From a virus (taxonomy: Duplodnaviria > Caudoviricetes): DNA of 64,000 nucleotides. Under the pieces are notes generated by a model. That model did not search any database and was not told the origin of the DNA. It saw nothing but the letters and a program-made list of their open reading frames with translations. Position 1 is the stretch's first letter; each line of letters begins with the position of its first letter. The stretch is from IMG/VR virus record IMGVR_UViG_3300027971_004105; one strand, given 5' to 3'. A program made the position numbers and the translations under genes. This document shows positions 2,675-56,098 of the stretch, in pieces.

Positions 2675-3209
2675 AATTAATCAAACCAAGATAGGCTGCA
2701 ATGCTGTGTTTAGAGATTGGCAAATGGATCATCTAGTTTGTTGTGATCGCAAGATGGTGTTGGAAGCTCTGCATGAAACCAATCCAGACCTTACCAAAAT
2801 ACACACCAGAGCTGAATATATCAGTATGGATTCAAGATTGAGTTGTGTGCCAGATTTGCCTTATGAGAGCAAACTGAGACAGGATCAACCCATTCATTGG
2901 GGCAGTGGTCCTTATGCTGTGCTGTTGGCCATAAAACTTATTCATTCCGATGAAACCATCCACCTGTTGGGATTTGATCTATATGGCACCGGAGAGAGAA
3001 TCAATAATGTGTACAAAGACAGTGTGGGTTATAAAAAATCGCATGAAAGAGCAGTGGATCCTAGATATTGGATACATCAGTTGCACCAGTTGTTTGAATT
3101 GCATCCAAACATAAAATTTGTGATGCATGTGACAGAATCTTTCGTCAAACCCACTGAATGGCATCATACCAATTTAGAATATCAGAGCTTGACAATGCTG
3201 CGGCAATAA
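2625..3209 (+). CDS. Glycosyltransferase/MptE(DUF115)-like Rossmann-type protein
   Basis: Start reassigned to ATG 2625 (MFVIGNGESR), after ATAAATA at 2613-2619; IGNGxS, GCNA, SGxxAV and LLGFD motifs. Confidence 0.5.
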   Translation: MFVIGNGESRKHINLDKINQTKIGCNAVFRDWQMDHLVCCDRKMVLEALHETNPDLTKIHTRAEYISMDSRLSCVPDLPYESKLRQDQPIHWGSGPYAVLLAIKLIHSDETIHLLGFDLYGTGERINNVYKDSVGYKKSHERAVDPRYWIHQLHQLFELHPNIKFVMHVTESFVKPTEWHHTNLEYQSLTMLRQ

Positions 3210-3218
3210 TGTAATAAT
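3189..3218 (+). promoter_or_regulatory. sigma70-like promoter for queD
   Basis: TTGACA 3189-3194 followed 17-18 nt later by TAATAA/AATAAT. Confidence 0.55.
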
Positions 3219-3251
3219 ATATGATGTTTGTAATTTATGACAATTACACAT

Positions 3252-3310
3252 AGAGGACTTGGTATAATCCCTCTTTAAAAATTCTTCTACCATATTAAAC
3301 AATAGGAGAT
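3252..3310 (+). ncRNA. preQ1-I-like riboswitch candidate (H-type pseudoknot with anti-SD)
   Basis: P1 AGAGG 3252-56/CCUCU 3270-74 preceded by C3269, A-rich tail, P2 UGGUA 3260-64/UACCA 3288-92; lies in the 5' UTR of queD. Confidence 0.65.
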
Positions 3311-3313
3311 AAT

Positions 3314-3841
3314 ATGGTGAAATATTACAGTACAAAAACATACGGCAACGACCGAGGTTTGAGTTGTTGTTTTAGACAGTGGCAGAGCACTCATTCACAC
3401 TGTTCTTTGCTGCATGGTTACAGCATAGGTATTAAATTAACTTTTGAATCAGAGACTCTGGATGATCGCAATTGGGTCATGGACTTTGGTGGATTGAAAG
3501 CATTCAAAGAATGGAGTGAACACATGTTTGATCACACATTGGTGGTGGCTGAAAATGATCCACACCTAGACAAATTTAAAGCATTGGCAGCATTGGGATT
3601 AAATTCAGTGGGCGGCATCTGTGATCTACGCATAGTGCCAGCAGTGGGCTGTGAAAAATTCAGCGAGTTGGTTTACAATGAGATGAACAAGATATTGAAA
3701 ACTTTTCAGTCAGGCAAGACTTACAAGTTGCCCAACGGTAAAGGATTTGATTGCAGGTATCCTGTGGGTCAAGGAGTCAAATTGCATTCAGTGGAAGTGT
3801 TTGAACACGCAGGGAATTCGGCCATATATCAAGCACAATAA
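3314..3841 (+). CDS. queD: 6-carboxy-5,6,7,8-tetrahydropterin synthase
   Basis: SHCSLLHGY (CxxxHG) motif, MDFGGLK, FDH, E-K-F and V-E-V-F-E motifs of the T-fold PTPS/QueD family; SD AGGAG. Confidence 0.88.
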   Translation: MVKYYSTKTYGNDRGLSCCFRQWQSTHSHCSLLHGYSIGIKLTFESETLDDRNWVMDFGGLKAFKEWSEHMFDHTLVVAENDPHLDKFKALAALGLNSVGGICDLRIVPAVGCEKFSELVYNEMNKILKTFQSGKTYKLPNGKGFDCRYPVGQGVKLHSVEVFEHAGNSAIYQAQ

Positions 3842-3853
3842 ATACTCCTGACC

Positions 3854-4558
3854 ATGTCTAACAATTATGTGTTGTGTCTCAAACACGGCAACAAATACAG
3901 TGCTGAATATGTGAATGTGTTAAAAAAAATGACACAACGCAATCTCACAGTGGCACATGAATTTGTGTGTTTCACTGAAGATCCCAAAGGCATAGATCCA
4001 GACATCAGAATATTGCCACTGCCTGCAGTTGTTCTCAAAGGATGGTGGTACAAAACCATGCTGTTCAATCCCCACTTGCCCATACAAGGCACCCTGCTGT
4101 TCATTGATTTGGATGTGATTATTTTTAAAAACATAGACAAATTGTTCACCCACAAGCCTGGAGAATTCTGTGTGTGCAGAGACTTCAACAGATGTTTTCA
4201 ACCCAACTGGCAGAAGATGAACAGTTCAGTGGTGCGTTGGAGCACAGGACAACACCCACAGATTTACAACAATTTTATCAAAGATCCACACACCATCAGC
4301 AAGAGATTTCATGGAGATCAAGACTGGTTGTTTGATCAGGTCAAAAAACACTATCAGTTCTGGCCTGATGAATGGATACAATCCTACAAGTGGGAGATGC
4401 GTGGCAATCCCAAATTGGTGAGACAGAAGACAGGTTTCAAAAACTTCACATCACCTGGTGAGCCCAAAATTAAATCAGACACTGCTGTGGCTGTGTTTCA
4501 CGGTGATCCCAATCCTAGAGAATGCGTGGATCCTTGGTGTCAAACCCATTGGAAATAG
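3854..4558 (+). CDS. GT-A fold glycosyltransferase
   Basis: LFIDLDVII (DxD), NSSVV, GDQDW, VFHGDPNP; ATAAATA at 3838-3844. Confidence 0.72.
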   Translation: MSNNYVLCLKHGNKYSAEYVNVLKKMTQRNLTVAHEFVCFTEDPKGIDPDIRILPLPAVVLKGWWYKTMLFNPHLPIQGTLLFIDLDVIIFKNIDKLFTHKPGEFCVCRDFNRCFQPNWQKMNSSVVRWSTGQHPQIYNNFIKDPHTISKRFHGDQDWLFDQVKKHYQFWPDEWIQSYKWEMRGNPKLVRQKTGFKNFTSPGEPKIKSDTAVAVFHGDPNPRECVDPWCQTHWK

Positions 4559-4572
4559 CCATTGAATCCACA

Positions 4573-4601
4573 TTGACTGCAGTCAAAATATCGCATATAC
4601 T
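4573..4601 (+). promoter_or_regulatory. sigma70-like promoter for uvsE, with a 14-bp palindrome on the -35 box
   Basis: TTGACT 4573-78, 17-nt spacer, TATACT 4596-4601; TTGACTGCAGTCAA 4573-4586 is a perfect palindrome. Confidence 0.7.
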
Positions 4602-4607
4602 AATAGT

Positions 4608-5660
4608 ATGATCAAAAGAATAGGTTTTTGCTGTCAATGGTTTCATCATGATAGAACTCTTAAAAAGAAACAACTGGAAGAATTAGAACGTCCTTACAAT
4701 ACCAGAGCTACCACTGTGCGTTGGTTGAACGAACACAAGGAACAAGCCGAAGAAAAACTGGCATTTGTGTTCAAACACAACATAGATGGCATCAAGAATT
4801 TAATATTAAAAGTGTCTGAACTGCCTGTGAGCAGAAGAATGTGCAGAATATCATCACCCATACTGCCAGTGGCCACTGAAAACACTTGGAGATACTATTG
4901 GGACAAGCCAGACATAATCAAGTATTGCGAACAACACTTTGCTGAAGCAGGCGATTTGGCTCGCAAACACAATGTTAAAGTATCTTTTCATCCAGGACAA
5001 TTCACGGTGTTGGCATCGGATAATCCAGACATAGTGGAAAGAAGCATAGACGAATTTGAATATCATGTGCGTATGGCGAAAATGATGGGGTTTGGTAAGA
5101 AATGGCAGGATGGTTGTAAAATCAATGTACACATATCAGGTCGTCAAGGTCCAGAAGGTATCATAAAAGCATTGCCTAGATTATCACCTGAAGCACGCAA
5201 TCTTATCACCATAGAGAATGATGAAATGAGTTGGGGATTGGATGCCACACTCCAGTTGGAAAAACATGTGGCATTGGTGCTGGACATACATCATCACCTT
5301 ATACGAGATGAAGAATACATACGTCCCACTGATGACAGAGTCAAAAGAGTCATAGACAGTTGGAGAGGCGTGCGACCCACCATGCATTATTCTTATTTTA
5401 GAGATGAAGCTTTAATGCCAGCATTTGATGCTGACACACAGCACATGATGCATAAAAATATGTTGCCCATGAAAGACTTAATAACGTTGGGCTGTCAAAA
5501 GGTAAAATTGAGATCTCACAGTGATCTGTTGCCCAATGCAGCACACAATGAATGGGCACTGTCATTTTTAGAATGCATGGACATTCAGGTGGAAGCAAAG
5601 GCCAAGAACTTGGCAGCTGAACAACTGCACAATCAGGCACAAGCTCTGGGTCTACTGTAA
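4608..5660 (+). CDS. uvsE: UV DNA damage endonuclease (UvsE/UvdE)
   Basis: RIGFCC N-terminus, RISS, SFHPGQF, INVH, IENDE, LDIHHH, HYS, HSD, EAKAKNLA. Confidence 0.9.
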   Translation: MIKRIGFCCQWFHHDRTLKKKQLEELERPYNTRATTVRWLNEHKEQAEEKLAFVFKHNIDGIKNLILKVSELPVSRRMCRISSPILPVATENTWRYYWDKPDIIKYCEQHFAEAGDLARKHNVKVSFHPGQFTVLASDNPDIVERSIDEFEYHVRMAKMMGFGKKWQDGCKINVHISGRQGPEGIIKALPRLSPEARNLITIENDEMSWGLDATLQLEKHVALVLDIHHHLIRDEEYIRPTDDRVKRVIDSWRGVRPTMHYSYFRDEALMPAFDADTQHMMHKNMLPMKDLITLGCQKVKLRSHSDLLPNAAHNEWALSFLECMDIQVEAKAKNLAAEQLHNQAQALGLL

Positions 5661-5671
5661 TAAATACTGCC

Positions 5672-6241
5672 ATGCAAGACATGAAGCAGTGGATCGAATT
5701 GTTCGAAACCAAACAAAAACGTGAAAAAACCCTAGTGTTGGAAACATTGCCTTATGGCATGGGTGATTTGGATCCTGTGCTGAGCCGTGCCAATGTGGAA
5801 TATCATTATGGAGTATTGAGCCGAGGTTATGTGAATCGATACAACACAGGAGAAGGTGATCCTGATTTCAATTATGGTGGTGCTAAATTGCACAATTTAT
5901 TTTGGGCTCAATTGCAAGCACCCCGAGGCAGCAATCTTCCTCAAGGCACAATAAAAGAATTCATAAACGAACATCATAAAGATTATGACAGTTTTAAAGA
6001 AACGTTACTTTTGACCACTATGAAACTGCAAGGATCTGGATGGGTGTACTTGTCTCGATCAGGAGAGATCAAAACCACTCCCAATCAAACATATCGAACT
6101 GATATTTTAATGCCCATAGATATGTGGGAACATTCATTTATGGATTATGTGCCGGCAAAAGATGCCAAGAAACGCTACATTACAAATATTTTTAAAATAA
6201 TCAATTGGTCTACAATCAACGACCGTTTGAACACAAAATAA
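5672..6241 (+). CDS. sod: Fe/Mn superoxide dismutase with N-terminal leader
   Basis: LPY...L.P, EYHYG, LHNLFW, QGSGW, DMWEH: all four metal ligands present; late motif at 5660-5666. Confidence 0.85.
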   Translation: MQDMKQWIELFETKQKREKTLVLETLPYGMGDLDPVLSRANVEYHYGVLSRGYVNRYNTGEGDPDFNYGGAKLHNLFWAQLQAPRGSNLPQGTIKEFINEHHKDYDSFKETLLLTTMKLQGSGWVYLSRSGEIKTTPNQTYRTDILMPIDMWEHSFMDYVPAKDAKKRYITNIFKIINWSTINDRLNTK

Positions 6242-6592: not shown

Positions 6593-6940
6593 ATGGCTGT
6601 AATCACTGTCACTGAAAGAGCAATCGAAAAGATCAAAGAGTTGTGTCATCACAACAACAAATATGCTGTGAGACTCAGCATCAAAGGTGGTGGGTGTGCA
6701 GGTTATTCCTACGATTGGGGATTTGCTGATCAATCAGAAATTGCACCTGCAGATGAGCTGTTAAACTTTGGCAATGGAGCCAAGTTCACTATAGATGCTG
6801 CCAGTGTGATGTATATTCTAGGCACTGAGTTGGATTATGTGACTGAAGTGTTTGGATCACATTTTGACATTCGCAATCCCAATGCCAAGAGCGCATGTGG
6901 TTGTGGTGAGAGCATCAGTTTTGAAAAGGAGACAGCATAA
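6593..6940 (+). CDS. iscA: A-type Fe-S cluster carrier (HesB/IscA/SufA)
   Basis: GGGCAGYSY, LDYVTEVFGSHF, NPNAKSACGCGESI. Confidence 0.92.
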   Translation: MAVITVTERAIEKIKELCHHNNKYAVRLSIKGGGCAGYSYDWGFADQSEIAPADELLNFGNGAKFTIDAASVMYILGTELDYVTEVFGSHFDIRNPNAKSACGCGESISFEKETA

Positions 6941-6943
6941 CAC

Positions 6944-9900
6944 ATGGCCAAACAGAATATCAATATCGGAGTGGAAGGTAACGACGGTACCGGCGATAGT
7001 ATTCGCGATGCGTTTAGGAAAGCGAATGAAAACTTCACGGAACTTTATGCAGTTTTTGGACAAGGTGGACAGATTGCTTTCACATCACTGAGTGACACTC
7101 CTGACACACTGGGCATATTCAAACTGCCTATCAGCAACAGCACCGGCACAGAATTAGAAATGAGATCATTGTCTGGTGGTGTGGGTATCTCTGTGAGTTT
7201 AGCCACAGCAGGTCAGATTGTGATCAGCAACACCGGCAGTGAGTTGGTGGATGACCTTTCACCCAGTCTAGGAGGTCCGCTCAATGCCAATGGGTTTGCA
7301 GTGGGCAACGCAGAAGTCACCAGCCAAGCAGTGAGCAATTTTAATTCCACACATGGAACCAACATCACCATAGATGAATTATTAATCACCAAAGGCTACG
7401 CAGATCAAAGATATTTAAAATTAAGTGGTGGCGGCAGTGGAACTGCTGGACAAATACGAGTGAGAGATGAACCACCAAATGCATCAGAATACACCATCAC
7501 CATTGCCAGCTACAGTGCCGGCAATGCTGTGATCACTGCACATGGTTTTGACACCAGTGCCAATGGTATTGCCTACATCTACAACAGCACAGGCACTCCA
7601 GCTGTGGGATTGAGCAATGGTGTTACATATTACTTGCGTTTTGTAAATGTGAATCAGATGAGCATGCATGCTTCGTTTGCTCAAGCCACCAATGACGATG
7701 ACAGCACCAGAGTAAAAATCACTGTGTCAGGTGGCACAGGCACACAGACTTTGTTGGATGCTGACTATGATGACGCATTGGCAGGATATTTCTTAAGCAC
7801 AGAAGCCATGCCAAGAAAATCCATTGTGAGACGTCAAGGAGACACCATGACTGGTGCTCTTTATCTGCATGACCATCCAGGAGATTTGGCAGGTGAAGGC
7901 ACTCCCAACGGTGTGGATGATCTTCAAGCAGCCACAAAATTTTATGTGGACAACACCAGCTTCAGTTCTCAGGTTAATTTATATGTGGCCACCTCAGGTG
8001 ATGACAGTATGCAAGGAGTTCCACCAGGCAAAGAAGGCAGAGCTCTCAATTATGCTTATAAATCAATCAATGCTGCAGCTCGCAAAGCAGAAGAATTAAT
8101 ATTGACCACTCCTGTGGCACTAGGACCTTACACACAAACCATTACCTACAATACAGGAGCCAGCAATTCATTGGTGGTGTCTGAAGGAGTCACCAGCAGC
8201 AGTGGATACAACAATGTAAAATTGTTGATAGATGCCAATAGAACTTTCATAATCAAACAGATGATTGGTTTCATCAATACCACTTATCCTGATTTCATCT
8301 ATGATGAAGCAATCTGTGAACGTGATTTGGGTTTAATTTTGGATGGTATTGTGATAGATGTGTTGGCCAGTGTGAACTCCAACGTGAGATCACTGCAGGC
8401 AGGATTGAGATACTACAGCAATGTGAGTGCTGCCACTGCTATCAACCAACAGTTGACACAGACATTGGCTGGCATCAACTATGCCAAAAGCATCACCAAC
8501 ACTATTTTGCAAAATTTAACAGTGACTCCCACTTATGATGCAGGTTTTACGCAGACCATTGACGCACCCAGCACAGTGGATTCAACTGGCAGAGCTTCAG
8601 TGGCTGCCAAGTTCGATATCATTACCAACATCATCAGCAATGGTCCCACATCAGCTGCTCCTGAAGTGGAAGGCAGTACCTACACCATCACCATCAGCAA
8701 TGGCAGTTTTGGATTTGTGGATCAGAACAATCCCAACAATCAAGATTTAATTCCAGGCAAATTGATCAGAGGCAAGCAGAGCAATGCACTGGGCCGTGTG
8801 GTGAGCATCCTAGCAGGTGGTGCTGTGGACACTGTGCGAATGATACTGGTAGAGCCAAGAGAATTTGATGTGGGTGAGGAATTAGAATTTGCTGCTCCAA
8901 TAAAAAATCAGAACATAACCATTAGAGTGGAAAGTGGCACATACTTGGAAGATTATCCCATAAAAGTGGTCAACAATGTTTCTATCAAAGGAGATGAATT
9001 CCGTCGAGTGATTATTAGACCCAAAAATAGAATTTCACAATCACCTTGGGCTGACATTTATTTCTACAGAGATTTAACCATAGATGGATTAACCACTGCA
9101 ACCACAAACTTTGGTCGTCAATACTTGAATGATCCCACAGCTTTGAAGAATGTTGGATCTAGTTATACCAACGTAGGTGGATACACAGCAGCAGCTGAAC
9201 AAATTTTAGATGCCAAGCCCACCATTCAAACAGCAGTGGTGACCTACACCAATTCATTGCTGAGTCCCAGCTCGTTGAGTCCCACAGCGGAAGCTGCCAG
9301 CAGACGCGACACTGGATTGATTGTGGATGCAATTTACAATGATTTAATTCGAGGTGGCCGAGAAAATATTTTAGAAGTACAAGGTGGATTTTTTGGAGTG
9401 GCATTGAGCGCTCAACGCAAACAAGGAATTACCTATGTGGGTACATATATCAATGCTTCAGTGATCGCAGCTTTTTCAGCCACAATTAAAAGCATTGTGA
9501 CAAACATGCTCACATCAGTGAGTTTTGCTTTCAATGTATCTTATAATCCTCCCAAAAACAACAGACAGATGGATGTGTTTTTAATGGGAGAAGCTACCAT
9601 AATTAGAAATGTGACCTGTCAAGGCCACGGTGGATTCATGTGTGTGTTGGATCCTGAATCACAAGTTTTGAACAAATCACCCTACATACAAACAGCCAGC
9701 AGTTTTTCACAAAGCATCAATGCCAAAGCATTCCGAGGAGGTATGTTTGTGGATGGATCTTGTGGCAATGTGCCTGTCAATGTGCAGAATGTGGTGAGTG
9801 CATTTGAATTGGAAGTGGACAGCGATCCAGGAGAAGGATTGTTCATAAGAAAACCACTCACTCCCACAAGTTTCTACATCGGTGGACAAAGATATCAAGT

Positions 9901-12900
9901 GGATGCTGTGAGCAATTATGATGGACCAGCCGGCACTGCCACTCTATTACTGAACGCCAGCAGCAATGGTGGATTAGGATTCACCATCACCAGTCCCATA
10001 CCGTATCCATTGGTGTTGCAGACTGCAGGCAATAAATCTTTGTTGAGCAATGATTTCACTCAGGTGAATGATTTGGGTTATGGACTGTTGGCCACCAACG
10101 GTGCTTTGAGTGAACAAGTTTCCATGTTCACCTACTACTGTCATGTGGCTTATTATGCATTGAACGGAGCACAGATCAGATCATTGAACGGCAGCAATGC
10201 CAATGGTGTTTATGCATTGGTTGCAGAAGGATCAGATCCCAACGAACAACCAGATGATGTGACACTTTTCCACAACATGACGCAGGTGTGTAAAGTTTAC
10301 GACGATGGTGCAGTTTATGATCATCCTCTGTTGGCTCTCAGTGTGTATGTGTATGATCTGGAATATGTGCCTAACAACCGAGGAGAAATTGAAATAGATC
10401 ATGACACCCTTGATTCATCTTTACTTTTGGGTGTGGAAAGATATGAAATAGCCAGTGTGGAGTTGACTGATCCATTGGTCACTGTGGTTGGCCCTAGTGT
10501 GACTCGAGATGGCAGGGTGTACAAAATTAACCTCAGCACTGCCGGCACTCTTTCTGCTTCCACCACTGGAATCAAAGCAGTATTGAGCAACAATCAAACT
10601 GTGACCATCAGATCCAATTCAAACCATCGATTCAGCGGCGTGGGCAACGTGGCTCCCACAAGACCCAGCACTGCTTTGGTGTTCCCCAACGATTCAACCA
10701 CGGTGTACAGAACTGTGTCCTTCGGCATCAATGACGCTGTGGGCACTGCGTTGCCTGCCAACAACGTGATAGCAGGATTCGACACTGGATTCGACAATGT
10801 GAGATTGCAGGTGGCACCTGCGGCAGCATTAACAAGCACCCATGCAGGGGCTGGAACAACCATGGGAGCCACAGTGGGAGATGTGGTGATCGCCATTGAA
10901 CAATTGACTGAAGCTGCAGACATCACTAGAATCAACAACAACAACATGGCCTTTGGATGGGCAGGAGTGGTGCATGGAGTGAGCAATTATGTGGATCGCA
11001 CCACCTATGCCACTGTGCAGATCACCACATTGAACCATATTCACTCAGCTGGCTATGCAGGTGTTGGACTGTATGCACCAGTGGTGCGAGGAGCCGGCAC
11101 AGAAAATATTTCACTGCGTTGCGGACTGTTGTCTGGAGAAGACGCCAATATCACTATTAAAATATCCACATGCAGAGCCACTGGACATGATTTCTTGGAC
11201 ATAGGTTCAGGTGGATTCAACAGCAGCAATTACCCCAACTCTATTTTTGGTGAATCAGCCAACACACCTGTGCAGGACAATGAAGTGGAAGAACGCGGCA
11301 AGGGCAGAGTATTCTTTGTGAGCACAGACCAAGACGGAGTATTCCGTGTGGGAAGATTCTTCACAGTGGATCAAGGCACAGGATCTGTGACTTTTGCTGC
11401 TTCCATTGCATTGAGCAATCTGGACGGATTAGGATTCAAACGAGGTGTGGTGGCAGCAGAATTTTCAACAGATTCTGCCATGACTGACAATGCTTCAGAC
11501 ACAGTGCCCACAGAATCAGCTGTGAGAGGCTATGTGGATCGCAGATTACACTACACCGACGCAGGCACATTGGTGGCCAACCCTATAGGAGCAGGAGTCA
11601 TTGCCAGAGACGGCAGCACTTCATTCACTGCCAACATCAGTGCAGGCGGATTCAAACTGATCACATTGGGCGCTCCCACTTCATCACAAGATGCTGCCAA
11701 CAAAGCCTATGTGGATCAAACATTGTATGCCAGTGATCAGGTAGAAAATTTAAGAAATGTGGACATTGCAGGGTTTGCTGCCAATCAGATATTGGTGTTC
11801 AATGGCAGACTTAGAATATTCACCAATCCAGAAACAGGCGGAATATTTGTGGTGGGTAACACTATCACAGGCAGCAGCACAGGCACAGTGGCCACCATAG
11901 TAGATTATGAATCAGTGGTATTGCCGGGCGCATTGAATGCAAGACGCATAACTTTTGCATCAGTGTCAGGTCCTGGCTTCAGCACATTGGATTCTATCAG
12001 CACAGGTGGTGGAGTATCAGCACAAATAATTGATGGTCCAATGAATGAATTGGCCAATGGAGTGATGAGTGGCAGCACAGATATTTCAATCACAGCCACA
12101 AGAAGCACTGCACAAACAGATTTAAATTTACAAATAGTAGCTGGCAGCATCATCAATGCAGATGTGAACGCAGCCGCAGCCATTCAGCAGAGCAAGTTGG
12201 CCATGACAGCTGCCACCACCAGAGTGAACGCCACAGGCATCAGTCAGGCAGATCTTGGATTGGCCAGCTTTGATTCCAGCACTTTCACAGTGACCAACGG
12301 CTGGGTGCAGATTGATTCAGGTGATTTGGCCATCAGCAAGATTGAGAACATGGCCACTGACACAGTGATAGGTCGCAGTGCAGCTGGCACAGGAGCTCCC
12401 AGCGCCATAGCATTCAGCACAGTGATCAGTGATGGTGGAGGATTAGAAGATGGAGATTTTGCCACAGAATTACTGGCTGCATTGGATCCAGGAGAAGCAC
12501 TGATCAAAACAGGTGCCACTTCATATGCTCGAACCAATGTGAGCACCTCAGGCGAAGTGAACAGTATTATTAAATCAGATGCCACAGGCATTGTGGATGT
12601 GGCAGCATTGAAGTTGGATGGACAACTGTTGATAGACAGCAACACTGGCACCAACACTTCGCTGTTCTACACCAGAGGCAGCATCAATTTCTTACAAGCA
12701 GTGGGCAATACCACTGCCAACACCACACTCACATTCACAGGTAGAAAATTTCAATTTGGTGGCAGCACAGTGCCCAATTCACCCACTGCTGATGCACTGC
12801 AGAGCGCGGCATTGAATGAAGGCCGAGGCATAGCCACACCTCACTTGTTCACAAAATTCATTGAAACAGATTCAGTAGAGTCAGGCGGCACAGGTATAGC

Positions 12901-13501
12901 ACTGGGAGCAGGTGGCAGCACATTGGCTGGTGCAGGCAAGATCAGCATTGTGTTGGCAGGAGCAGTGCCATTCATATTTGCAGGTGACGCAGACGATTCC
13001 ACTATCACCACACCAGGAGTTTATCCTGACGCAACTGACACATACACCATTGGTAATGCTTCGGCCAGATACAAAACAATTTTTGCTGAAGTGTTTCACG
13101 GCACAGCAACCAACGCATTGTACGCAGATTTGGCAGAGAAATATTTGGCAGACCAGGAATATGATTCGGGCACTGTGTTGCAGTTTGGTGGCGACAAAGA
13201 AGTTACCATCACCACAGAAGCCAACACCAACAAGATAGCAGGTGTGGTGACCACAGCGCCAGCATTTTTGATGAATGATCAATTGAATGAAGAGAACACA
13301 GTGGCAGTGGCACTGCAGGGTCGTGTGCCATGCAAAGTGATTGGAAAAATTGCCAAAGGTGACATGCTGGTGGCCAGTGCAGTGCCAGGTGTGGCATGTG
13401 CAGCTGAAGGTGAAATTAAAATAGGCACCGTGATTGGTAAATCACTGGAGCATTATGATTCAGATCAGGTGGGTGTGATTGAGATTGCGATAGGTAGATA
13501 A
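6944..13501 (+). CDS. Giant baseplate/tail-associated virion protein (2185 aa)
   Basis: T4 gp9/gp10-like N-terminus (NIGVEGNDGTGDSIRDAFRKANENF), DAATKxYVD fibre motifs, C-terminal YADLAEKY...VALQGRVPCKV chaperone/autocleavage-like domain. Confidence 0.75.
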   Translation: MAKQNINIGVEGNDGTGDSIRDAFRKANENFTELYAVFGQGGQIAFTSLSDTPDTLGIFKLPISNSTGTELEMRSLSGGVGISVSLATAGQIVISNTGSELVDDLSPSLGGPLNANGFAVGNAEVTSQAVSNFNSTHGTNITIDELLITKGYADQRYLKLSGGGSGTAGQIRVRDEPPNASEYTITIASYSAGNAVITAHGFDTSANGIAYIYNSTGTPAVGLSNGVTYYLRFVNVNQMSMHASFAQATNDDDSTRVKITVSGGTGTQTLLDADYDDALAGYFLSTEAMPRKSIVRRQGDTMTGALYLHDHPGDLAGEGTPNGVDDLQAATKFYVDNTSFSSQVNLYVATSGDDSMQGVPPGKEGRALNYAYKSINAAARKAEELILTTPVALGPYTQTITYNTGASNSLVVSEGVTSSSGYNNVKLLIDANRTFIIKQMIGFINTTYPDFIYDEAICERDLGLILDGIVIDVLASVNSNVRSLQAGLRYYSNVSAATAINQQLTQTLAGINYAKSITNTILQNLTVTPTYDAGFTQTIDAPSTVDSTGRASVAAKFDIITNIISNGPTSAAPEVEGSTYTITISNGSFGFVDQNNPNNQDLIPGKLIRGKQSNALGRVVSILAGGAVDTVRMILVEPREFDVGEELEFAAPIKNQNITIRVESGTYLEDYPIKVVNNVSIKGDEFRRVIIRPKNRISQSPWADIYFYRDLTIDGLTTATTNFGRQYLNDPTALKNVGSSYTNVGGYTAAAEQILDAKPTIQTAVVTYTNSLLSPSSLSPTAEAASRRDTGLIVDAIYNDLIRGGRENILEVQGGFFGVALSAQRKQGITYVGTYINASVIAAFSATIKSIVTNMLTSVSFAFNVSYNPPKNNRQMDVFLMGEATIIRNVTCQGHGGFMCVLDPESQVLNKSPYIQTASSFSQSINAKAFRGGMFVDGSCGNVPVNVQNVVSAFELEVDSDPGEGLFIRKPLTPTSFYIGGQRYQVDAVSNYDGPAGTATLLLNASSNGGLGFTITSPIPYPLVLQTAGNKSLLSNDFTQVNDLGYGLLATNGALSEQVSMFTYYCHVAYYALNGAQIRSLNGSNANGVYALVAEGSDPNEQPDDVTLFHNMTQVCKVYDDGAVYDHPLLALSVYVYDLEYVPNNRGEIEIDHDTLDSSLLLGVERYEIASVELTDPLVTVVGPSVTRDGRVYKINLSTAGTLSASTTGIKAVLSNNQTVTIRSNSNHRFSGVGNVAPTRPSTALVFPNDSTTVYRTVSFGINDAVGTALPANNVIAGFDTGFDNVRLQVAPAAALTSTHAGAGTTMGATVGDVVIAIEQLTEAADITRINNNNMAFGWAGVVHGVSNYVDRTTYATVQITTLNHIHSAGYAGVGLYAPVVRGAGTENISLRCGLLSGEDANITIKISTCRATGHDFLDIGSGGFNSSNYPNSIFGESANTPVQDNEVEERGKGRVFFVSTDQDGVFRVGRFFTVDQGTGSVTFAASIALSNLDGLGFKRGVVAAEFSTDSAMTDNASDTVPTESAVRGYVDRRLHYTDAGTLVANPIGAGVIARDGSTSFTANISAGGFKLITLGAPTSSQDAANKAYVDQTLYASDQVENLRNVDIAGFAANQILVFNGRLRIFTNPETGGIFVVGNTITGSSTGTVATIVDYESVVLPGALNARRITFASVSGPGFSTLDSISTGGGVSAQIIDGPMNELANGVMSGSTDISITATRSTAQTDLNLQIVAGSIINADVNAAAAIQQSKLAMTAATTRVNATGISQADLGLASFDSSTFTVTNGWVQIDSGDLAISKIENMATDTVIGRSAAGTGAPSAIAFSTVISDGGGLEDGDFATELLAALDPGEALIKTGATSYARTNVSTSGEVNSIIKSDATGIVDVAALKLDGQLLIDSNTGTNTSLFYTRGSINFLQAVGNTTANTTLTFTGRKFQFGGSTVPNSPTADALQSAALNEGRGIATPHLFTKFIETDSVESGGTGIALGAGGSTLAGAGKISIVLAGAVPFIFAGDADDSTITTPGVYPDATDTYTIGNASARYKTIFAEVFHGTATNALYADLAEKYLADQEYDSGTVLQFGGDKEVTITTEANTNKIAGVVTTAPAFLMNDQLNEENTVAVALQGRVPCKVIGKIAKGDMLVASAVPGVACAAEGEIKIGTVIGKSLEHYDSDQVGVIEIAIGR

Positions 13502-51915: not shown

Positions 51916-52371
51916 ATGGAAACAGCCAATAAAAATTATTTTACCATGATCCAGATGCGTGCAGCTCTGCTGAATATACATCAGCAATTGACTGAACAAC
52001 AATGGCAACCTCAGGTAATATTAGGATTAAACAGAGGAGGATGTATTCCTGCTATCTATTTGTCACACAAATTGGATGTTCCTCATCATGTGTTAAATGT
52101 AAGTTTACGAGATCATGCTGATACTCCTGATTTACACACATTGGAAAAAGTATATGCTTGGCAAAAAAGAGTATTGATAGTGGATGATATCAATGATACA
52201 GGTGCCACATTTAATTATATTATGAATAACTTTGGCAAACCAGAAAGATTAAAGTTTGCTGTGATATTGCACAACACAGTGAGCACCTACAAAGATATAG
52301 ATTACAAAGGTTATGAAATCAACAAACTGGAAGATCCACGTTGGATAGTGTTTCCTTGGGAGCAATGGTAG
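51916..52371 (+). CDS. Purine phosphoribosyltransferase (type I PRTase)
   Basis: ILGLNRGG, VLIVDDINDTGAT (PRPP loop), WIVFPWE. Confidence 0.85.
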   Translation: METANKNYFTMIQMRAALLNIHQQLTEQQWQPQVILGLNRGGCIPAIYLSHKLDVPHHVLNVSLRDHADTPDLHTLEKVYAWQKRVLIVDDINDTGATFNYIMNNFGKPERLKFAVILHNTVSTYKDIDYKGYEINKLEDPRWIVFPWEQW

Positions 52372-52372
52372 T

Positions 52373-52750
52373 ATGGAAAAAATTGACACTTTGAATCAAG
52401 CTCAAAAAGAAGGCAGAACTCCTTGGACCAAAGTGATATATGATTTGAAAGATTGTGTGTGGTATGAGGATGGATATCCTGTGACAGAAGGACATGCATT
52501 GTTGGTACCCAAACAAGCCAGTCAAAATATGATTGTGAAATGTTTTGAATTAGCATTGAAAATTGGCAATGAAAATATTGCCAAAGGGTTGATTGACGGC
52601 TACAACATAGGTATCAACATGGGCGAGGCAGCAGGTCAAACTGTTCCTTATCCGCATGTTCATTTGATTCCAAGACGCAAGGGTGACATGGAAGATCCTA
52701 GGGGTGGTGTGCGTCATGTGATCCCTCACAAAGGAAATTATAAAAAATGA
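52373..52750 (+). CDS. HIT-family nucleotide hydrolase
   Basis: YPVTEGHALLVPK, YNIGINMGEAAGQTVPYPHVHLIPR. Confidence 0.9.
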   Translation: MEKIDTLNQAQKEGRTPWTKVIYDLKDCVWYEDGYPVTEGHALLVPKQASQNMIVKCFELALKIGNENIAKGLIDGYNIGINMGEAAGQTVPYPHVHLIPRRKGDMEDPRGGVRHVIPHKGNYKK

Positions 52751-53574
52751 GCAGAGCACTTTTCATAGGAGACAGTCACACTTGTGGATATGTCACTGTG
52801 CCTAACAAAACAGGTCCAGGCAGTTATACCTATTGGAATGATAACAACTATGCTGAAATTTACAACACAGTGAACGATAAACCCGTGAGTATCTATGCAC
52901 ATGCTGGAACAACTAATAGAATGTACACTGATTGGATGAAACACATGTTTAACACATTTCCAGACACCGATGAAGTTTTTCTTTGTTTGGCTCCATTGAA
53001 TAGATTTGTGTTGGCTTTTGATGAGAAACTCACAGATGAAGCACTGCCTTTGGATTATTTTGTGCATGAATGTGTGGAAAGCACACCCACAGTAAAAAAG
53101 TATATGGATCTATTGGTCAAAGAAGGCAGAGTGCAATTGTACAACAAACCCACAGCAGAAGATTATGAAAAGTTTCCAGGTTTAAAAATTTCTGAAACAG
53201 ATGGATTGCAACAACCAGACGTAAGAAAAAACACATTTATGGAGATAAAATTATTTTTTGAATTGAACACACATTTGGAAAGACGTGATTTTTTATTGAA
53301 TGTGTTTGCTTGGGATAGAATCTGTGCTGAAAACAATGCCAAACTTTATGTGTTTAATTTTATGAATAGATTGAAATGGCCCAAGAGTTTGGAATATTAC
53401 GGTGCATTAAAAAATACCACAGTAGCAGAAAAAACTGTTGAGCAATATATGTTGGACAATGGTATTGATCCTCAAAAATATTTGCTGCATGACAAAGAAC
53501 ATTACAATACAGAATATCACAAAACGATTGTGGAAAAATACATACCATGGATAAAAAATCAAAAAAAATCCTAA
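52747..53574 (+). CDS. SGNH/GDSL-like protein
   Basis: FIGDSH, AGTTN, C-terminal DKEHY. Confidence 0.5.
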   Translation: MSRALFIGDSHTCGYVTVPNKTGPGSYTYWNDNNYAEIYNTVNDKPVSIYAHAGTTNRMYTDWMKHMFNTFPDTDEVFLCLAPLNRFVLAFDEKLTDEALPLDYFVHECVESTPTVKKYMDLLVKEGRVQLYNKPTAEDYEKFPGLKISETDGLQQPDVRKNTFMEIKLFFELNTHLERRDFLLNVFAWDRICAENNAKLYVFNFMNRLKWPKSLEYYGALKNTTVAEKTVEQYMLDNGIDPQKYLLHDKEHYNTEYHKTIVEKYIPWIKNQKKS

Positions 53575-54164
53575 TCATTGGTGATAGTTTTGCTTGTGAG
53601 TGGCCCAATGGCCTTGCTGGATGGCCCGCTCAGTTGGCTCAACAACATGATGTGACCAATTTGGCTCAGGCAGGTGTGGGCGAATATAAAATATTAAGAC
53701 AACTGCTAAACTTTACCAAAGAAAATCCTTGGTGGCAGCATGACTATGATTGTGTGATTGTGTGTCATACCAGTCCCAGCAGAGTACACACTCCCGTTCA
53801 TCCCATACACAAACAAGGACTGCACAAAGATTGTGATCTCATATGGAATGACATTGAATCTCGCAACAGTTGGTTCAATAAAAGTTTAGACACTGCTAAA
53901 AATTGGTTCAAGTATCACTATGATGATCAATACCAAAAAGACATCTACAGATTGATACGCAGAGATATCAACAGAAAACTGGAGCAAATCACCAGTTTAC
54001 ACATAGATAATTTTGGTATCAGTAACCATTTTGTTGAGGAACAGAATCTGTTGGACTTCAGTATGATCTGGCCTAACTACAGAGGAGAAATTAATCATTA
54101 CAATGATGAAGGAAACCAAATTGTTTTGGCACAAATCATTGACAAACTGGAACAAATCTGTTAA
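53547..54164 (+). CDS. SGNH/GDSL-like protein
   Basis: IIGDSF, TNLAQAGVG, NHY..EGN. Confidence 0.55.
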   Translation: MDKKSKKILIIGDSFACEWPNGLAGWPAQLAQQHDVTNLAQAGVGEYKILRQLLNFTKENPWWQHDYDCVIVCHTSPSRVHTPVHPIHKQGLHKDCDLIWNDIESRNSWFNKSLDTAKNWFKYHYDDQYQKDIYRLIRRDINRKLEQITSLHIDNFGISNHFVEEQNLLDFSMIWPNYRGEINHYNDEGNQIVLAQIIDKLEQIC

Positions 54165-54167
54165 AAT
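54139..54167 (+). promoter_or_regulatory. sigma70-like promoter for folE-queE
   Basis: TTGACA-17-TAAAAT. Confidence 0.65.
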
Positions 54168-54187
54168 AATACAATATAAGGAGTATA

Positions 54188-54874
54188 ATGAAAGTATCAG
54201 AAAAGATTAAACAAAGACTGATTGCGGCTGGCGTGAACTATCATGCTGATGACAATATTTCAGCCTACATCGAAAAAGATGAATTGTCTCTGCTGGAACA
54301 AGAATTAACAGAATCATTCCGATCTGTGCTAAACAGTCTTGTGATTGATACTGACAATGATCCTAATAGTAAAAACACAGCACATAGATTGGCCAAAATG
54401 TATTTGACAGAAATCATGAGCGGAAGATATGAATCTAGACCCGATGCCACAGCATTTCCCAATGTGGGAGGAAATGCTTACACAGGCATGTTGGTGGTGC
54501 GTAGTGAATTAAAATCTATCTGCAGTCATCATCATCAACCAGTGAGCGGTGTGGCGTATATTGGAATCATACCCAATGGCAAAGTGATAGGATTGAGCAA
54601 ATACACAAGAATAGCACAATGGTGTGCTAGAAGAGGCACACTGCAAGAGTCTTTGTGCAATGACATAGCACATGAAATTGAAATGGCCACTGGCAGCAGA
54701 AACATAGGTGTTTACATACAAGCCACACATGGCTGTTGTGAAAACCGAGGCATAATGGCACACAGTTCATTGACTCAGACCACTGTGTTAAAAGGTGCTT
54801 TCAAAGATGATGCTGGCACTAAAAAAGAATTTATGGATAATATTAACCTGCAACAACAATTTGCACCAAGATAG
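54188..54874 (+). CDS. folE: GTP cyclohydrolase I
   Basis: TAHRLAKMY, SICSHH, GLSKYTR, LQE, HGCCENRG. Confidence 0.93.
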   Translation: MKVSEKIKQRLIAAGVNYHADDNISAYIEKDELSLLEQELTESFRSVLNSLVIDTDNDPNSKNTAHRLAKMYLTEIMSGRYESRPDATAFPNVGGNAYTGMLVVRSELKSICSHHHQPVSGVAYIGIIPNGKVIGLSKYTRIAQWCARRGTLQESLCNDIAHEIEMATGSRNIGVYIQATHGCCENRGIMAHSSLTQTTVLKGAFKDDAGTKKEFMDNINLQQQFAPR

Positions 54875-54883
54875 GAGACACAG

Positions 54884-55087
54884 ATGACCAATAAAGAAGG
54901 ACCATTTTACGCAGCATTCGGAGGTGATACCACAGGTATTATCAAACAAGAATTAATCACTTACAAAGTTAAAGATGGTGTGCTGTACAAAGAAACAGTG
55001 AAGAGAGATTATCACAGCCAAGGAGATTACATTGATTCATGTGAGTCAATTCCTTTGAAAGAAAACAAACATGAACATACAGCCTAA
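54884..55087 (+). CDS. Small hypothetical protein
   Basis: SD AGGAG; 67 aa. Confidence 0.6.
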   Translation: MTNKEGPFYAAFGGDTTGIIKQELITYKVKDGVLYKETVKRDYHSQGDYIDSCESIPLKENKHEHTA

Positions 55088-55238
55088 AGACACCAGTAAA
55101 GGTCATTTCTATGTGTCACTAATCAAGAGTGCATTTAGAATCATTGCAGGCATTAGTTTAATATTTGGTAACTTTATTACTGCTGGATTTTTATTCATAC
55201 TGGCAGAATTATTAGGAGTGGTAGAGGAATTAGTATAA
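55071..55238 (+). CDS. 55-aa membrane protein (not in the ORF track)
   Basis: MNIQPKDTSKGHFYVSLIKSAFRIIAGISLIFGNFITAGFLFILAELLGVVEELV; stop overlaps the queE ATG. Confidence 0.62.
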   Translation: MNIQPKDTSKGHFYVSLIKSAFRIIAGISLIFGNFITAGFLFILAELLGVVEELV

Positions 55239-56098
55239 TGAGCAAAATTAAAATAGCAGAATTATTTTACAGCATACAAGGAGAAGGCAGGTACATGGGT
55301 GTGCCTTCAGTGTTCTTGAGAACATTTGGCTGCAACTTTACTTGTGCTGGCTTTGGTTTGCCTCGAGGCATGCGTAGTGATGAGAATGACAAAGTATTTG
55401 AACAGCACAAACAATTTCCTTTTAAAAGCTATGAAGAATTGCCATTGGTGAACACAGGCTGTGATTCGTATGCATCTTGGGATCCTCGATTCAAAGATTT
55501 ATCTCCCATGCTGACATCAGATGCTATTGTGGAAAGAACAATGGAAATATTGCCACACAAACAATGGGTGGATGAACATTTTATATTCACAGGCGGTGAA
55601 CCATTGCTGGGTTGGCAACGTGCTTATCCAGATGTATTGGAACATGCAAAGATGCAGGCTTTAAAAGAGATCACTTTTGAAACCAATGGCACACAAAAAC
55701 TACACAAAGATTTTAAAGATTATTTGACTCAATGGAATCAGAAGAATGGTAGAACTAAAGAATCCATATCATTCTCTGTGAGTGCAAAATTAAGTGTGAG
55801 CGGAGAAAAACGTGAAGAAGCTATACTGCCTGAAGTGGTGGCAGAATATGGAGATGTAGGGCATGTGTATTTGAAATTTGTGGTGGCCACCAAGGAAGAT
55901 GCTGATGAGGCATTCCAAGCAGTGGCTGATTATCGTAAAGCAGGATTCTCGGGATCAGTTTATTTGATGCCTGTGGGTGGAGTAGAAAGTGTCTATCATA
56001 TGAACAATAGAACAGTGGCAGAACTGGCAATGAAGATGGGATATAGATACAGTGATAGATTACAGGTGCCATTGTTTAAAAACGCATGGGGTACATAA
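55238..56098 (+). CDS. queE: 7-carboxy-7-deazaguanine synthase (radical SAM)
   Basis: ELFYSIQGEG, FLRTFGCNFTC...GCDS, FTGGEP, ETNG, SVSAK, RLQV. Confidence 0.88.
   Translation: MSKIKIAELFYSIQGEGRYMGVPSVFLRTFGCNFTCAGFGLPRGMRSDENDKVFEQHKQFPFKSYEELPLVNTGCDSYASWDPRFKDLSPMLTSDAIVERTMEILPHKQWVDEHFIFTGGEPLLGWQRAYPDVLEHAKMQALKEITFETNGTQKLHKDFKDYLTQWNQKNGRTKESISFSVSAKLSVSGEKREEAILPEVVAEYGDVGHVYLKFVVATKEDADEAFQAVADYRKAGFSGSVYLMPVGGVESVYHMNNRTVAELAMKMGYRYSDRLQVPLFKNAWGT

Follow-up and report, generated by a model that had tools for sequence, protein, structure and literature searches.

A conserved pseudoknot upstream of a QueD-like gene in uncultured jumbo phages looks like a new phage-specific ON riboswitch

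We analysed the leader of a queD-like gene in a 64,000-nt stretch of phage DNA (IMG/VR record IMGVR_UViG_3300027971_004105, Caudoviricetes; the whole stretch is called the window below, and coordinates count from its first nucleotide). This leader probably holds a small aptamer, folded as an H-type pseudoknot, that represents an undescribed riboswitch class restricted to phages and is joined to a strand-exchange expression platform; the aptamer would respond to a bound ligand, and we put the probability of this reading at roughly 0.6. About 190 distinct versions of the motif were collected, all located before PTPS/QueD-family genes of uncultured phages, and it is the comparison of these versions that makes the case for the aptamer. 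Related contigs reach up to 343 kb and the source of the DNA is therefore an uncultured jumbo phage. The record closest to the window is a 13%-complete fragment, a blastn search against the phage GenBank collection gave no match, and the sequencing runs matching a stretch of the window are freshwater and lake metagenomes.

The candidate aptamer and its covariation

A first-pass annotation, made from the letters of the window, had proposed a preQ1-I-like pseudoknot in this leader, and its layout agrees with the sequence: AGAGG (3252-3256) is followed by ACUUGGUAUAAUC (3257-3269), CCUCU (3270-3274), UUAAAAAUUCUUC (3275-3287) and UACCA (3288-3292), and downstream of these lie a Shine-Dalgarno (SD) sequence, AGGAGA at 3304-3309, and then an ATG at 3314. 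The predicted parts of the aptamer are as follows.

3229-3248, plus strand: hairpin P0, UGUAAUU (3229-35) with AAUUACA (3242-48), loop UAUGAC; read from the sequence, window clade only
3252-3256, plus strand: 5' strand of P1, AGAGG, pairing with 3270-74
3257-3259, plus strand: L1, ACU; first base variable, C and U invariant in the family
3260-3264, plus strand: 5' strand of P2, UGGUA, pairing with 3288-92
3265-3267, plus strand: U3265, mismatched with C3287, and the P2 extension A3266 and A3267
3268-3269, plus strand: junction U3268 and unpaired C3269, a C in 190/190 versions
3270-3274, plus strand: 3' strand of P1, CCUCU, pairing with 3252-56
3275-3284, plus strand: L3, UUAAAAAUUC; family pattern N-U-A-N-A-N-A-Y-U-C
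3285-3292, plus strand: extended 3' strand of P2, with U3285 and U3286 (extension), C3287 (mismatch) and UACCA (3288-92)

A MAFFT alignment of 147 versions (A1) misregistered P2 in one third of its rows, and for this reason pairs were counted instead in two register-consistent sub-alignments, A2 (56 sequences including the window) and A3 (91 sequences), and with an anchor-based script. P1 was paired in 99-100% of cells and its first three pairs covary (AU/UA, GC/CG/UA and CG/AU/UA), pairs 4 and 5 being GC. Overall, 90.4% of cells were paired in A2 compared to 79.8 ± 1.0% in shuffles, and 95.3% in A3 compared to 81.5 ± 0.7%, with 0/500 shuffles as high in either case; cells changed on both sides numbered 118 versus 30 in A3, and slid registers of both sub-alignments left only 30-60% of cells paired. 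Covariation is seen in five of five P2 columns for A3 and in four for A2, with 81-91% of cells paired versus 26-55% in shifted registers. The anchor-based count, which ignores pairing and simply compares the five nucleotides preceding the conserved 5-nt L2 with the five following UCUGC, found P2 paired in 87%, against 54 ± 2% with shuffled tails and 26-48% in other registers, and this across 50 different strand combinations. The homologous queD leaders are thus conserved and carry compensating changes, which is what the first-pass annotation had asked of them, and since both helices covary in relatives the H-type pseudoknot that it drew (P1 3252-56/3270-74, P2 3260-64/3288-92) is real.

P2 was found to run beyond the U.C mismatch by two more pairs, a feature added by this analysis. 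In a sample of 89 sequences gathered via the protein and not via the motif, the mismatch is U.C in 88; the first extension pair (L2 position 2 with L3 position 12) is CG in 85, AU in 3 (the window clade) and UA in 1 (L319), and the second (L2 position 3 with L3 position 11) is AU in 86 and GC in 3 (L307, L316 and L317). This amounts to three independent compensatory events with zero broken pairs. The window clade departs from the family at two otherwise invariant bases, UCAUC becoming UAAUC and UCUGC becoming UCUUC, because these two changes compensate each other.

The unpaired nucleotides are conserved as well, with 15 of them invariant or nearly so within a 40-nt RNA. Among 190 versions, L1 position 2 is C in all and position 3 is U in 189, while position 1 is U in 69, A in 64 and C in 57 (36%, 34% and 30%). 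In the 10-nt L3, the three alternating A and the terminal U and C are invariant, and 3282 is merely a pyrimidine. The unpaired junction measures 2-3 nt across the family and always ends in the invariant C. P0 recurs at the same place in clade relatives as UGUGAU/AUUGCA or UGCGAU/AUUGCA, with a few compensatory changes; it did not form in the minimum free energy (MFE) fold of the whole leader, and the other clades do not have it.

For the window itself we built a covariance model from relatives outside the window clade, in which the extended P2 made up the paired part. This model scored 3249-3297 at 37.0 bits (E ~2e-6) with 7/7 pairs standard, and the leader was its sole real match in the 64 kb, the runner-up reaching 12 bits. 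The full model gave 43.2 bits and one copy in the window, as well as one strong match in each of four motif-holding related phage records, always before a PTPS gene; on the related fragment G001 it gave no match.

The initiation region, the proposed switch and transcription

In the window, the 3' strand of P2 can also take part in a 10-bp helix of UACCAUAUUA with UAAUAUGGUG that covers the entire AUG.

3288-3297, plus strand: 5' strand of the sequestering helix, UACCAUAUUA, sharing 3288-92 with P2
3304-3309, plus strand: SD, AGGAGA, within the 12-nt loop of the sequestering hairpin
3310-3319, plus strand: 3' strand of the sequestering helix, UAAUAUGGUG, including the start codon (3314-16)

The region 3283-3325 folds with an MFE of -9.0 kcal/mol (z -2.5), and the helix also appears in the MFE fold of the whole leader. 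Its equivalent in L003 is UACCAUAUU with AAUAUGGUA, and other clades have UGUCAUC/GAUGGCA, UGCCAUC/GAUGGCA, UGUCAUC/GAUGACA, AAGUCAUC/GAUGACUU or GUCAUUGUU/AACAAUGGC in its place, or around the SD CCUAUG/CAUAGG (CCUAUA/UAUAGG in L161). The 3' strand of P2 pairs with the SD or AUG region over a mean of 6.8 bp, compared to 4.6 bp with shuffled partners. The mean energy over 154 leaders is -9.1 kcal/mol for the platform hairpin versus -4.2 kcal/mol for the P2 duplex, and in 92% of them the 3' strand of P2 takes part in the platform MFE fold. The covariation extends over three strands, as in GACUU...AAGUC...AUGACUU: where P2 is GACUU/AAGUC the coding sequence starts AUGACUU, so that the start region mimics the 5' strand of P2. 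Comparative sequence analysis thus shows both alternative structures and their mutual exclusion.

These results bear out the ON logic put forward for the leader, in that P2 and a helix sequestering the initiation region exclude one another. The competing helix is a different one from that proposed. Pairing of UCUUCUA (3283-89) with UAGGAGA (3303-09) is possible in the window, but this anti-SD helix is not a conserved competitor of P2, and we rejected it as such: it is lost in the closest relatives L003-L013 (L003 reads GAAAGGUAAAAUAUG) and is not chosen by the MFE fold. As we picture the switch, the aptamer would consist of P1, an L1 with C-U, a P2 of five pairs, a U.C mismatch and two further pairs, the junction C and the 10-nt L3. 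By default the hairpin 3288-97/3310-19 (about -9 kcal/mol), being more stable than P2, would bury the AUG and keep the message closed. A small molecule would then bind and stabilise the pseudoknot rather than the hairpin, and the locked pseudoknot would free the start codon for translation of the QueD-like enzyme. As the default fold hides the start and the pseudoknot exposes it, stabilising the pseudoknot is predicted to switch translation on. The leader combines two features by which riboswitches are recognised, namely a conserved structured aptamer in sense orientation in a 5' leader with a consistent gene association, and an expression platform whose mutually exclusive pairings overlap the aptamer, in the window by 3288-92.

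The sigma70-like promoter noted upstream was confirmed, with 11 of 12 matches and the TG present.

3189-3218, plus strand: sigma70-like promoter, TTGACA (3189-94), 18-nt spacer, TG (3210-11), AATAAT (3213-18)

From this sequence, the transcript is predicted to start near 3225. The promoter is kept in the window clade (L001-L013). Other clades have a TTGACA-17-TATAAT promoter, ending some 7 nt 5' of P1, and at many loci the motif has a promoter immediately before it. In L015, L019, L035 and other type-A leaders (for example L015:2965-2995) the loop of the CCUAUG...CAUAGG hairpin is often UGCUAUAAU or UGCUAAAAU, which resembles an extended -10 and may be either a further promoter that bypasses the riboswitch or a plain AU-rich loop.

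Could the structure in the window be incidental, TGGTATAAT being a working extended -10 from which a transcript starts at about 3275 without the aptamer? The sequence at 3260-68 is a perfect TGnTATAAT and there is a weak -35-like ATGACA at 3237-42, but the latter is 20 nt away and a strong promoter exists upstream. At this site other clades have P2 strands of quite another sequence, which covary, and a transcript from 3275 would keep only the AUG-sequestering hairpin and be poorly translated. Contigs from lake RNA libraries of three studies (3243-3996, 3247-3404 and 3155-3305) span the aptamer; since they run through 3252-3275 they argue, weakly, against transcripts starting only at TGGTATAAT. 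These contigs leave part of 2900-4700 uncovered (for example 4364-4700) and show neither a transcript start nor its absence, and we take them as a weak hint that the aptamer is transcribed. We therefore consider an incidental structure very improbable; TGGTATAAT is confined to the window clade and is probably coincidental.

Known RNA families and distribution among phages

Rfam 15 gave no match at gathering score on the window or on 20 related loci. At E<=10, nothing of preQ1 kind was found in 3150-3400 of the window, where the first-pass annotation had suggested a search with the preQ1-I covariance model, and nothing relevant in the leaders of L029 and L015. Matches at chance level were dismissed (psm_mec, snoRNA, Oskar_OES, freshwater-2, and preQ1-II at 14 bits in the SD region of L015). 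Run alone on five related phage records at E<=1, the preQ1-I model RF00522 found nothing at the four motif-bearing queD leaders and reached at most 16 bits elsewhere in these records, compared to a gathering score of 39; it exceeded its cut-off in B. subtilis, which served as positive control.

The likeness to preQ1-I is one of layout. Both are minimal H-type pseudoknots of about 35-45 nt with a 5-bp P1, a P2 that joins the loop of P1 to the 3' tail, an invariant unpaired C immediately 5' of the 3' strand of P1, and an A-rich L3 positioned along the P1 minor groove; both precede genes of the 7-deazaguanine route (QueD, QueE, YhhQ). AGAGG/CCUCU is identical to P1 of the B. subtilis queC preQ1-I riboswitch. 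In published preQ1-I structures C17 pairs with the ligand, and a U at the start of L1 and an A at the end of L3 complete the ligand plane. The phage motif departs from this at both of the latter positions, as its first L1 base is variable and its L3, which is longer, ends in the invariant U-C. Its P2 has eight layers (5 bp, the U.C mismatch and 2 bp) in place of 3-4 bp, its SD lies outside the aptamer, a sequestering hairpin competes with P2 so that ON rather than OFF control is predicted, and it occurs in phages rather than in cellular genomes. The description of the leader as preQ1-I-like therefore holds for its layout and fails for membership in RF00522.

A divergent but true preQ1-I riboswitch, binding preQ1 or preQ0 and repressing queD because the pseudoknot itself blocks the ribosome, would share this layout and would fit the QueD-like, QueE and YhhQ genes, which match the bacterial preQ1 regulon; moreover, compact preQ1-I pseudoknots can attenuate translation with a ribosome-binding site as far as 10 nt away (PMC10907184). 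We nevertheless regard it as quite improbable. Besides the negative RF00522 searches and the differences at positions that contact the ligand in preQ1-I, the helix that sequesters the AUG or SD covaries and competes with P2, and if the pseudoknot were the repressed state this helix would be without purpose.

Other known classes resemble the motif in part. The add adenine riboswitch of Vibrio vulnificus is the parallel for translational ON control by strand exchange, which is here predicted from sequence: without ligand its SD and AUG are held in a sequestering hairpin, and the ligand-stabilised aptamer takes one strand and opens initiation (PMC10907184). It is however a three-way junction of the purine class and not a pseudoknot, with another ligand and other genes. 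PreQ1-II, SAM-II/SAM-V and guanidine-III are likewise small H-type pseudoknots in which conserved loop nucleotides form the pocket and control is translational, but the phage motif matched none of them in sequence or model in Rfam 15; in preQ1-II and SAM-II/SAM-V the SD is part of the aptamer and control is mostly repressive, and guanidine-III has other conserved nucleotides and other genes. The c-di-GMP-I riboswitches of C. difficile prophages and the glutamine riboswitches of cyanophages also place a cis-regulatory RNA before an auxiliary metabolic gene, but they are rare copies of bacterial classes (PMC5473149), whereas the new motif is abundant in phages. We place the phage motif among the small pseudoknot riboswitches, of which preQ1-I has the most similar layout. 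It fits none of the catalogued RNA families and has the appearance of a new ON riboswitch specific to phages.

The QueD-like protein has 430 relatives in IMG/VR, and in most of the 80 loci fetched the 130 nt upstream of queD contain the motif with compensating changes. A 23-nt pattern of its 3' half matched at least 120 IMG/VR stretches, with the whole motif present in 80/80 inspected. In a second sample, drawn without any pattern from the relatives (at least 590) of a paralogous PTPS protein, 76/80 loci had the motif. In 596 Gb of prokaryote genomes the same 23-nt pattern gave 69 matches, by our own estimate about the number expected by chance, and the full motif in 6. These six copies are on contigs of 5.5 to 32 kb (L209, L226, L221, L249, L246 and L264) from metagenome-assembled genomes labelled as Bacteroidetes YR_bin-4742, Rickettsiales MED657, Crocinitomicaceae and Chitinophagales; they are probably phage contigs mis-binned with cells, and the labels could hint at the hosts of the phages. 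Judging from these searches the motif is phage-restricted: phages carry it in abundance, and the genomes of 185,579 prokaryote species are essentially free of it. We found no description of it in the full-text literature; subscription journals lay outside this coverage and an earlier description is possible.

The downstream gene, the pathway and the possible ligand

The gene that follows the leader, and its neighbours downstream, are listed below. All genes around queD are on the plus strand, and baseplate, tail-fibre and Lon-like protease genes are also among them.

3314-3841, plus strand: PTPS/QueD-like gene, 175 aa; Pfam PF01242 (E 1.2e-14), PHROG 2389 (QueD-like)
3854-4558, plus strand: glycosyltransferase-like gene directly 3' of queD; PHROG 1962, no Pfam match
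4608-5660, plus strand: UvdE UV endonuclease
5672-6241, plus strand: Fe/Mn superoxide dismutase
6593-6940, plus strand: HesB/IscA-like Fe-S assembly protein
6944-13501, plus strand: open reading frame of 2185 aa, next after the HesB/IscA-like gene

Aligned to the E. coli QueD structure (4ntm), the window protein has the active-site motif C-x3-H-G-Y (HCSLLHGY) and not C-x3-H-G-H, and against the QueD equivalog model NCBIfam TIGR03367 it scores 38.2 bits, below the cut-off of 89.25. From its sequence we describe it as a divergent PTPS superfamily member with a putative QueD-like activity. A PTPS-family gene was found within about 0.8 kb 3' of the motif in 190/192 cases, that is, at every motif with enough downstream sequence. 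These genes belong to at least four sub-families: the QueD-like group of the window (125), a paralogous group of two sizes (63), a canonical C-x3-HGH QueD in L173, and another variant in L089 and L109. Next after the PTPS gene there is often QueE or a YhhQ/Vut_1 transporter; the latter, of the queuosine-precursor transporter family, follows directly in about five distinct loci (for example L197:1068-1688). Other next genes are glycosyltransferase-like, UvdE, KdsA-like, epimerase, methyltransferase and cupin genes, and a glycosyltransferase-like gene stands directly 3' of queD in 74/192 motif loci, usually with UvdE after it. At L021:2429-3525 two PTPS paralogues (168 aa, then 174 aa, about 35% identical) lie in tandem behind a single copy of the motif.

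The constant association with one protein family is also what autoregulatory leaders show. Perhaps the switch is real and is set by a protein (the QueD-like enzyme itself, or a phage or host factor), by folding kinetics or by temperature, and not by a metabolite; the two-state architecture is silent on what tips the balance. We consider this unlikely, though to be taken seriously. The motif serves at least four PTPS sub-families, including the canonical QueD of L173, and as these are only 35-45% identical a shared protein-RNA interface is less likely. PTPS enzymes are not known to bind RNA. The 15 invariant or near-invariant unpaired nucleotides, including the lone junction C, are moreover typical of small-ligand pseudoknot aptamers such as preQ1-I, SAM-II and guanidine-III.

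Several points weigh against a metabolite-sensing ON riboswitch in this leader. The exclusive tie to one protein family would also fit autoregulation by that protein. Single-sequence folding of the aptamer was no better than that of shuffles (z +0.6) and the MFE predictions for some relatives lacked P1; as the aptamer core is invariant within the window clade, the support for the window's own P2 comes through the family. The case for the aptamer rests on comparative data. TGGTATAAT overlaps the 5' strand of P2 and L2 as a possible internal promoter, and the RNA data are assembled contigs with possible DNA carry-over and no transcript ends. With about 11 nt between it and the SD, the compact pseudoknot might by itself impede the ribosome and so blur the ON response, and ON control of the first committed enzyme of a biosynthetic pathway is unusual, known preQ1 riboswitches being repressive (PMC10907184).

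For the metabolite-sensing riboswitch, the question is then which ligand it would bind. The first-pass annotation had argued for an altered ligand specificity from A3257 and U3282. With U, A and C almost equally frequent at 3257 the argument from A3257 collapses, and 3282 simply holds a pyrimidine. A better candidate for a ligand-pairing base is C3269, by analogy with C17 of preQ1-I. A lone invariant C at the junction of P1 and P2, together with a regulon of QueD, QueE and YhhQ, points to a ligand with a guanine-like pairing face. Our best guess is a guanine-like heterocycle of the route from GTP to 7-deazaguanine, such as dihydroneopterin triphosphate, 7-carboxy-7-deazaguanine (CDG), preQ0, preQ1, or guanine itself. 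The ON logic would fit a substrate or supply signal better than an end product.

Further genes that may belong to this route lie about 50 kb from queD.

51916-52371: xanthine/HG phosphoribosyltransferase (PRTase)-like gene, about 50 kb from queD
52373-52750: HIT protein gene
54188-54874: FolE
55238-56098: QueE-like radical-SAM gene

No second copy of the aptamer precedes FolE or QueE, the 363-nt gap at 54875-55237 containing small open reading frames and no motif. FolE and QueE are present in 5/5 large relatives. Neither QueC nor TGT/DpdA was found in these five, which include a 99%-complete genome of 343 kb; the only trace of QueC was a match of 17 bits to its N-terminus. Given this lack of QueC and TGT, the encoded pathway appears to stop at CDG: the cluster at 51916-56098 suggests a route ending there, perhaps with salvage from base to nucleotide. 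The idea that the switch tunes precursor supply for the phage's own DNA modification is not supported by this inventory, and such modification is no more than possible.

At L027:312-4430, on a related contig, QueE, QueD, PRTase, FolE and a weak TGT-like gene form a single block that the motif does not accompany; the QueD-like protein encoded there is 80% identical to that of the window. Contigs with a TGT-like gene of this kind are without the motif and motif-bearing phages are without a TGT-like gene. The L027-type TGT-like protein was not found in the relatives G002-G006, in a search that had no positive control and shows little.

What this analysis adds is the extension of P2 with the compensating pair of the window clade, the AUG-sequestering helix of the window, a second sample free of bias, an inventory of the pathway, and contigs from RNA libraries. 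We can also formulate a more specific proposal, to which we give slightly less than even odds: that this is the first phage-native riboswitch class, a minimal pseudoknot aptamer carried by something like a thousand uncultured freshwater phages, which senses a pterin or 7-deazapurine (for example dihydroneopterin triphosphate or CDG) and switches on the first committed step towards 7-deazaguanine, in a pathway without QueC or DpdA that may feed an undescribed route.

A survey of all riboswitch classes in phages found only two c-di-GMP-I aptamers, in prophages, and two glutamine aptamers, in cyanophages, and its authors asked whether phages use classes that are still undiscovered (PMC5473149). 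The phage motif is a concrete and abundant candidate for such a class. Its length puts direct biochemistry and crystallography within reach, its gene association is clear, and natural compensatory variants map its helices. These jumbo phages, which encode FolE, QueD-like and QueE-like proteins and a purine PRTase yet have neither a recognisable QueC nor a DpdA, also raise the question of what their pathway produces. If the ligand were found, it would show how a virus sets the timing or the dose of a pathway in competition with folate synthesis for pterin made from GTP, would give the preQ1-like aptamers a rare pseudoknot that turns translation ON, and would provide a compact new sensor part.

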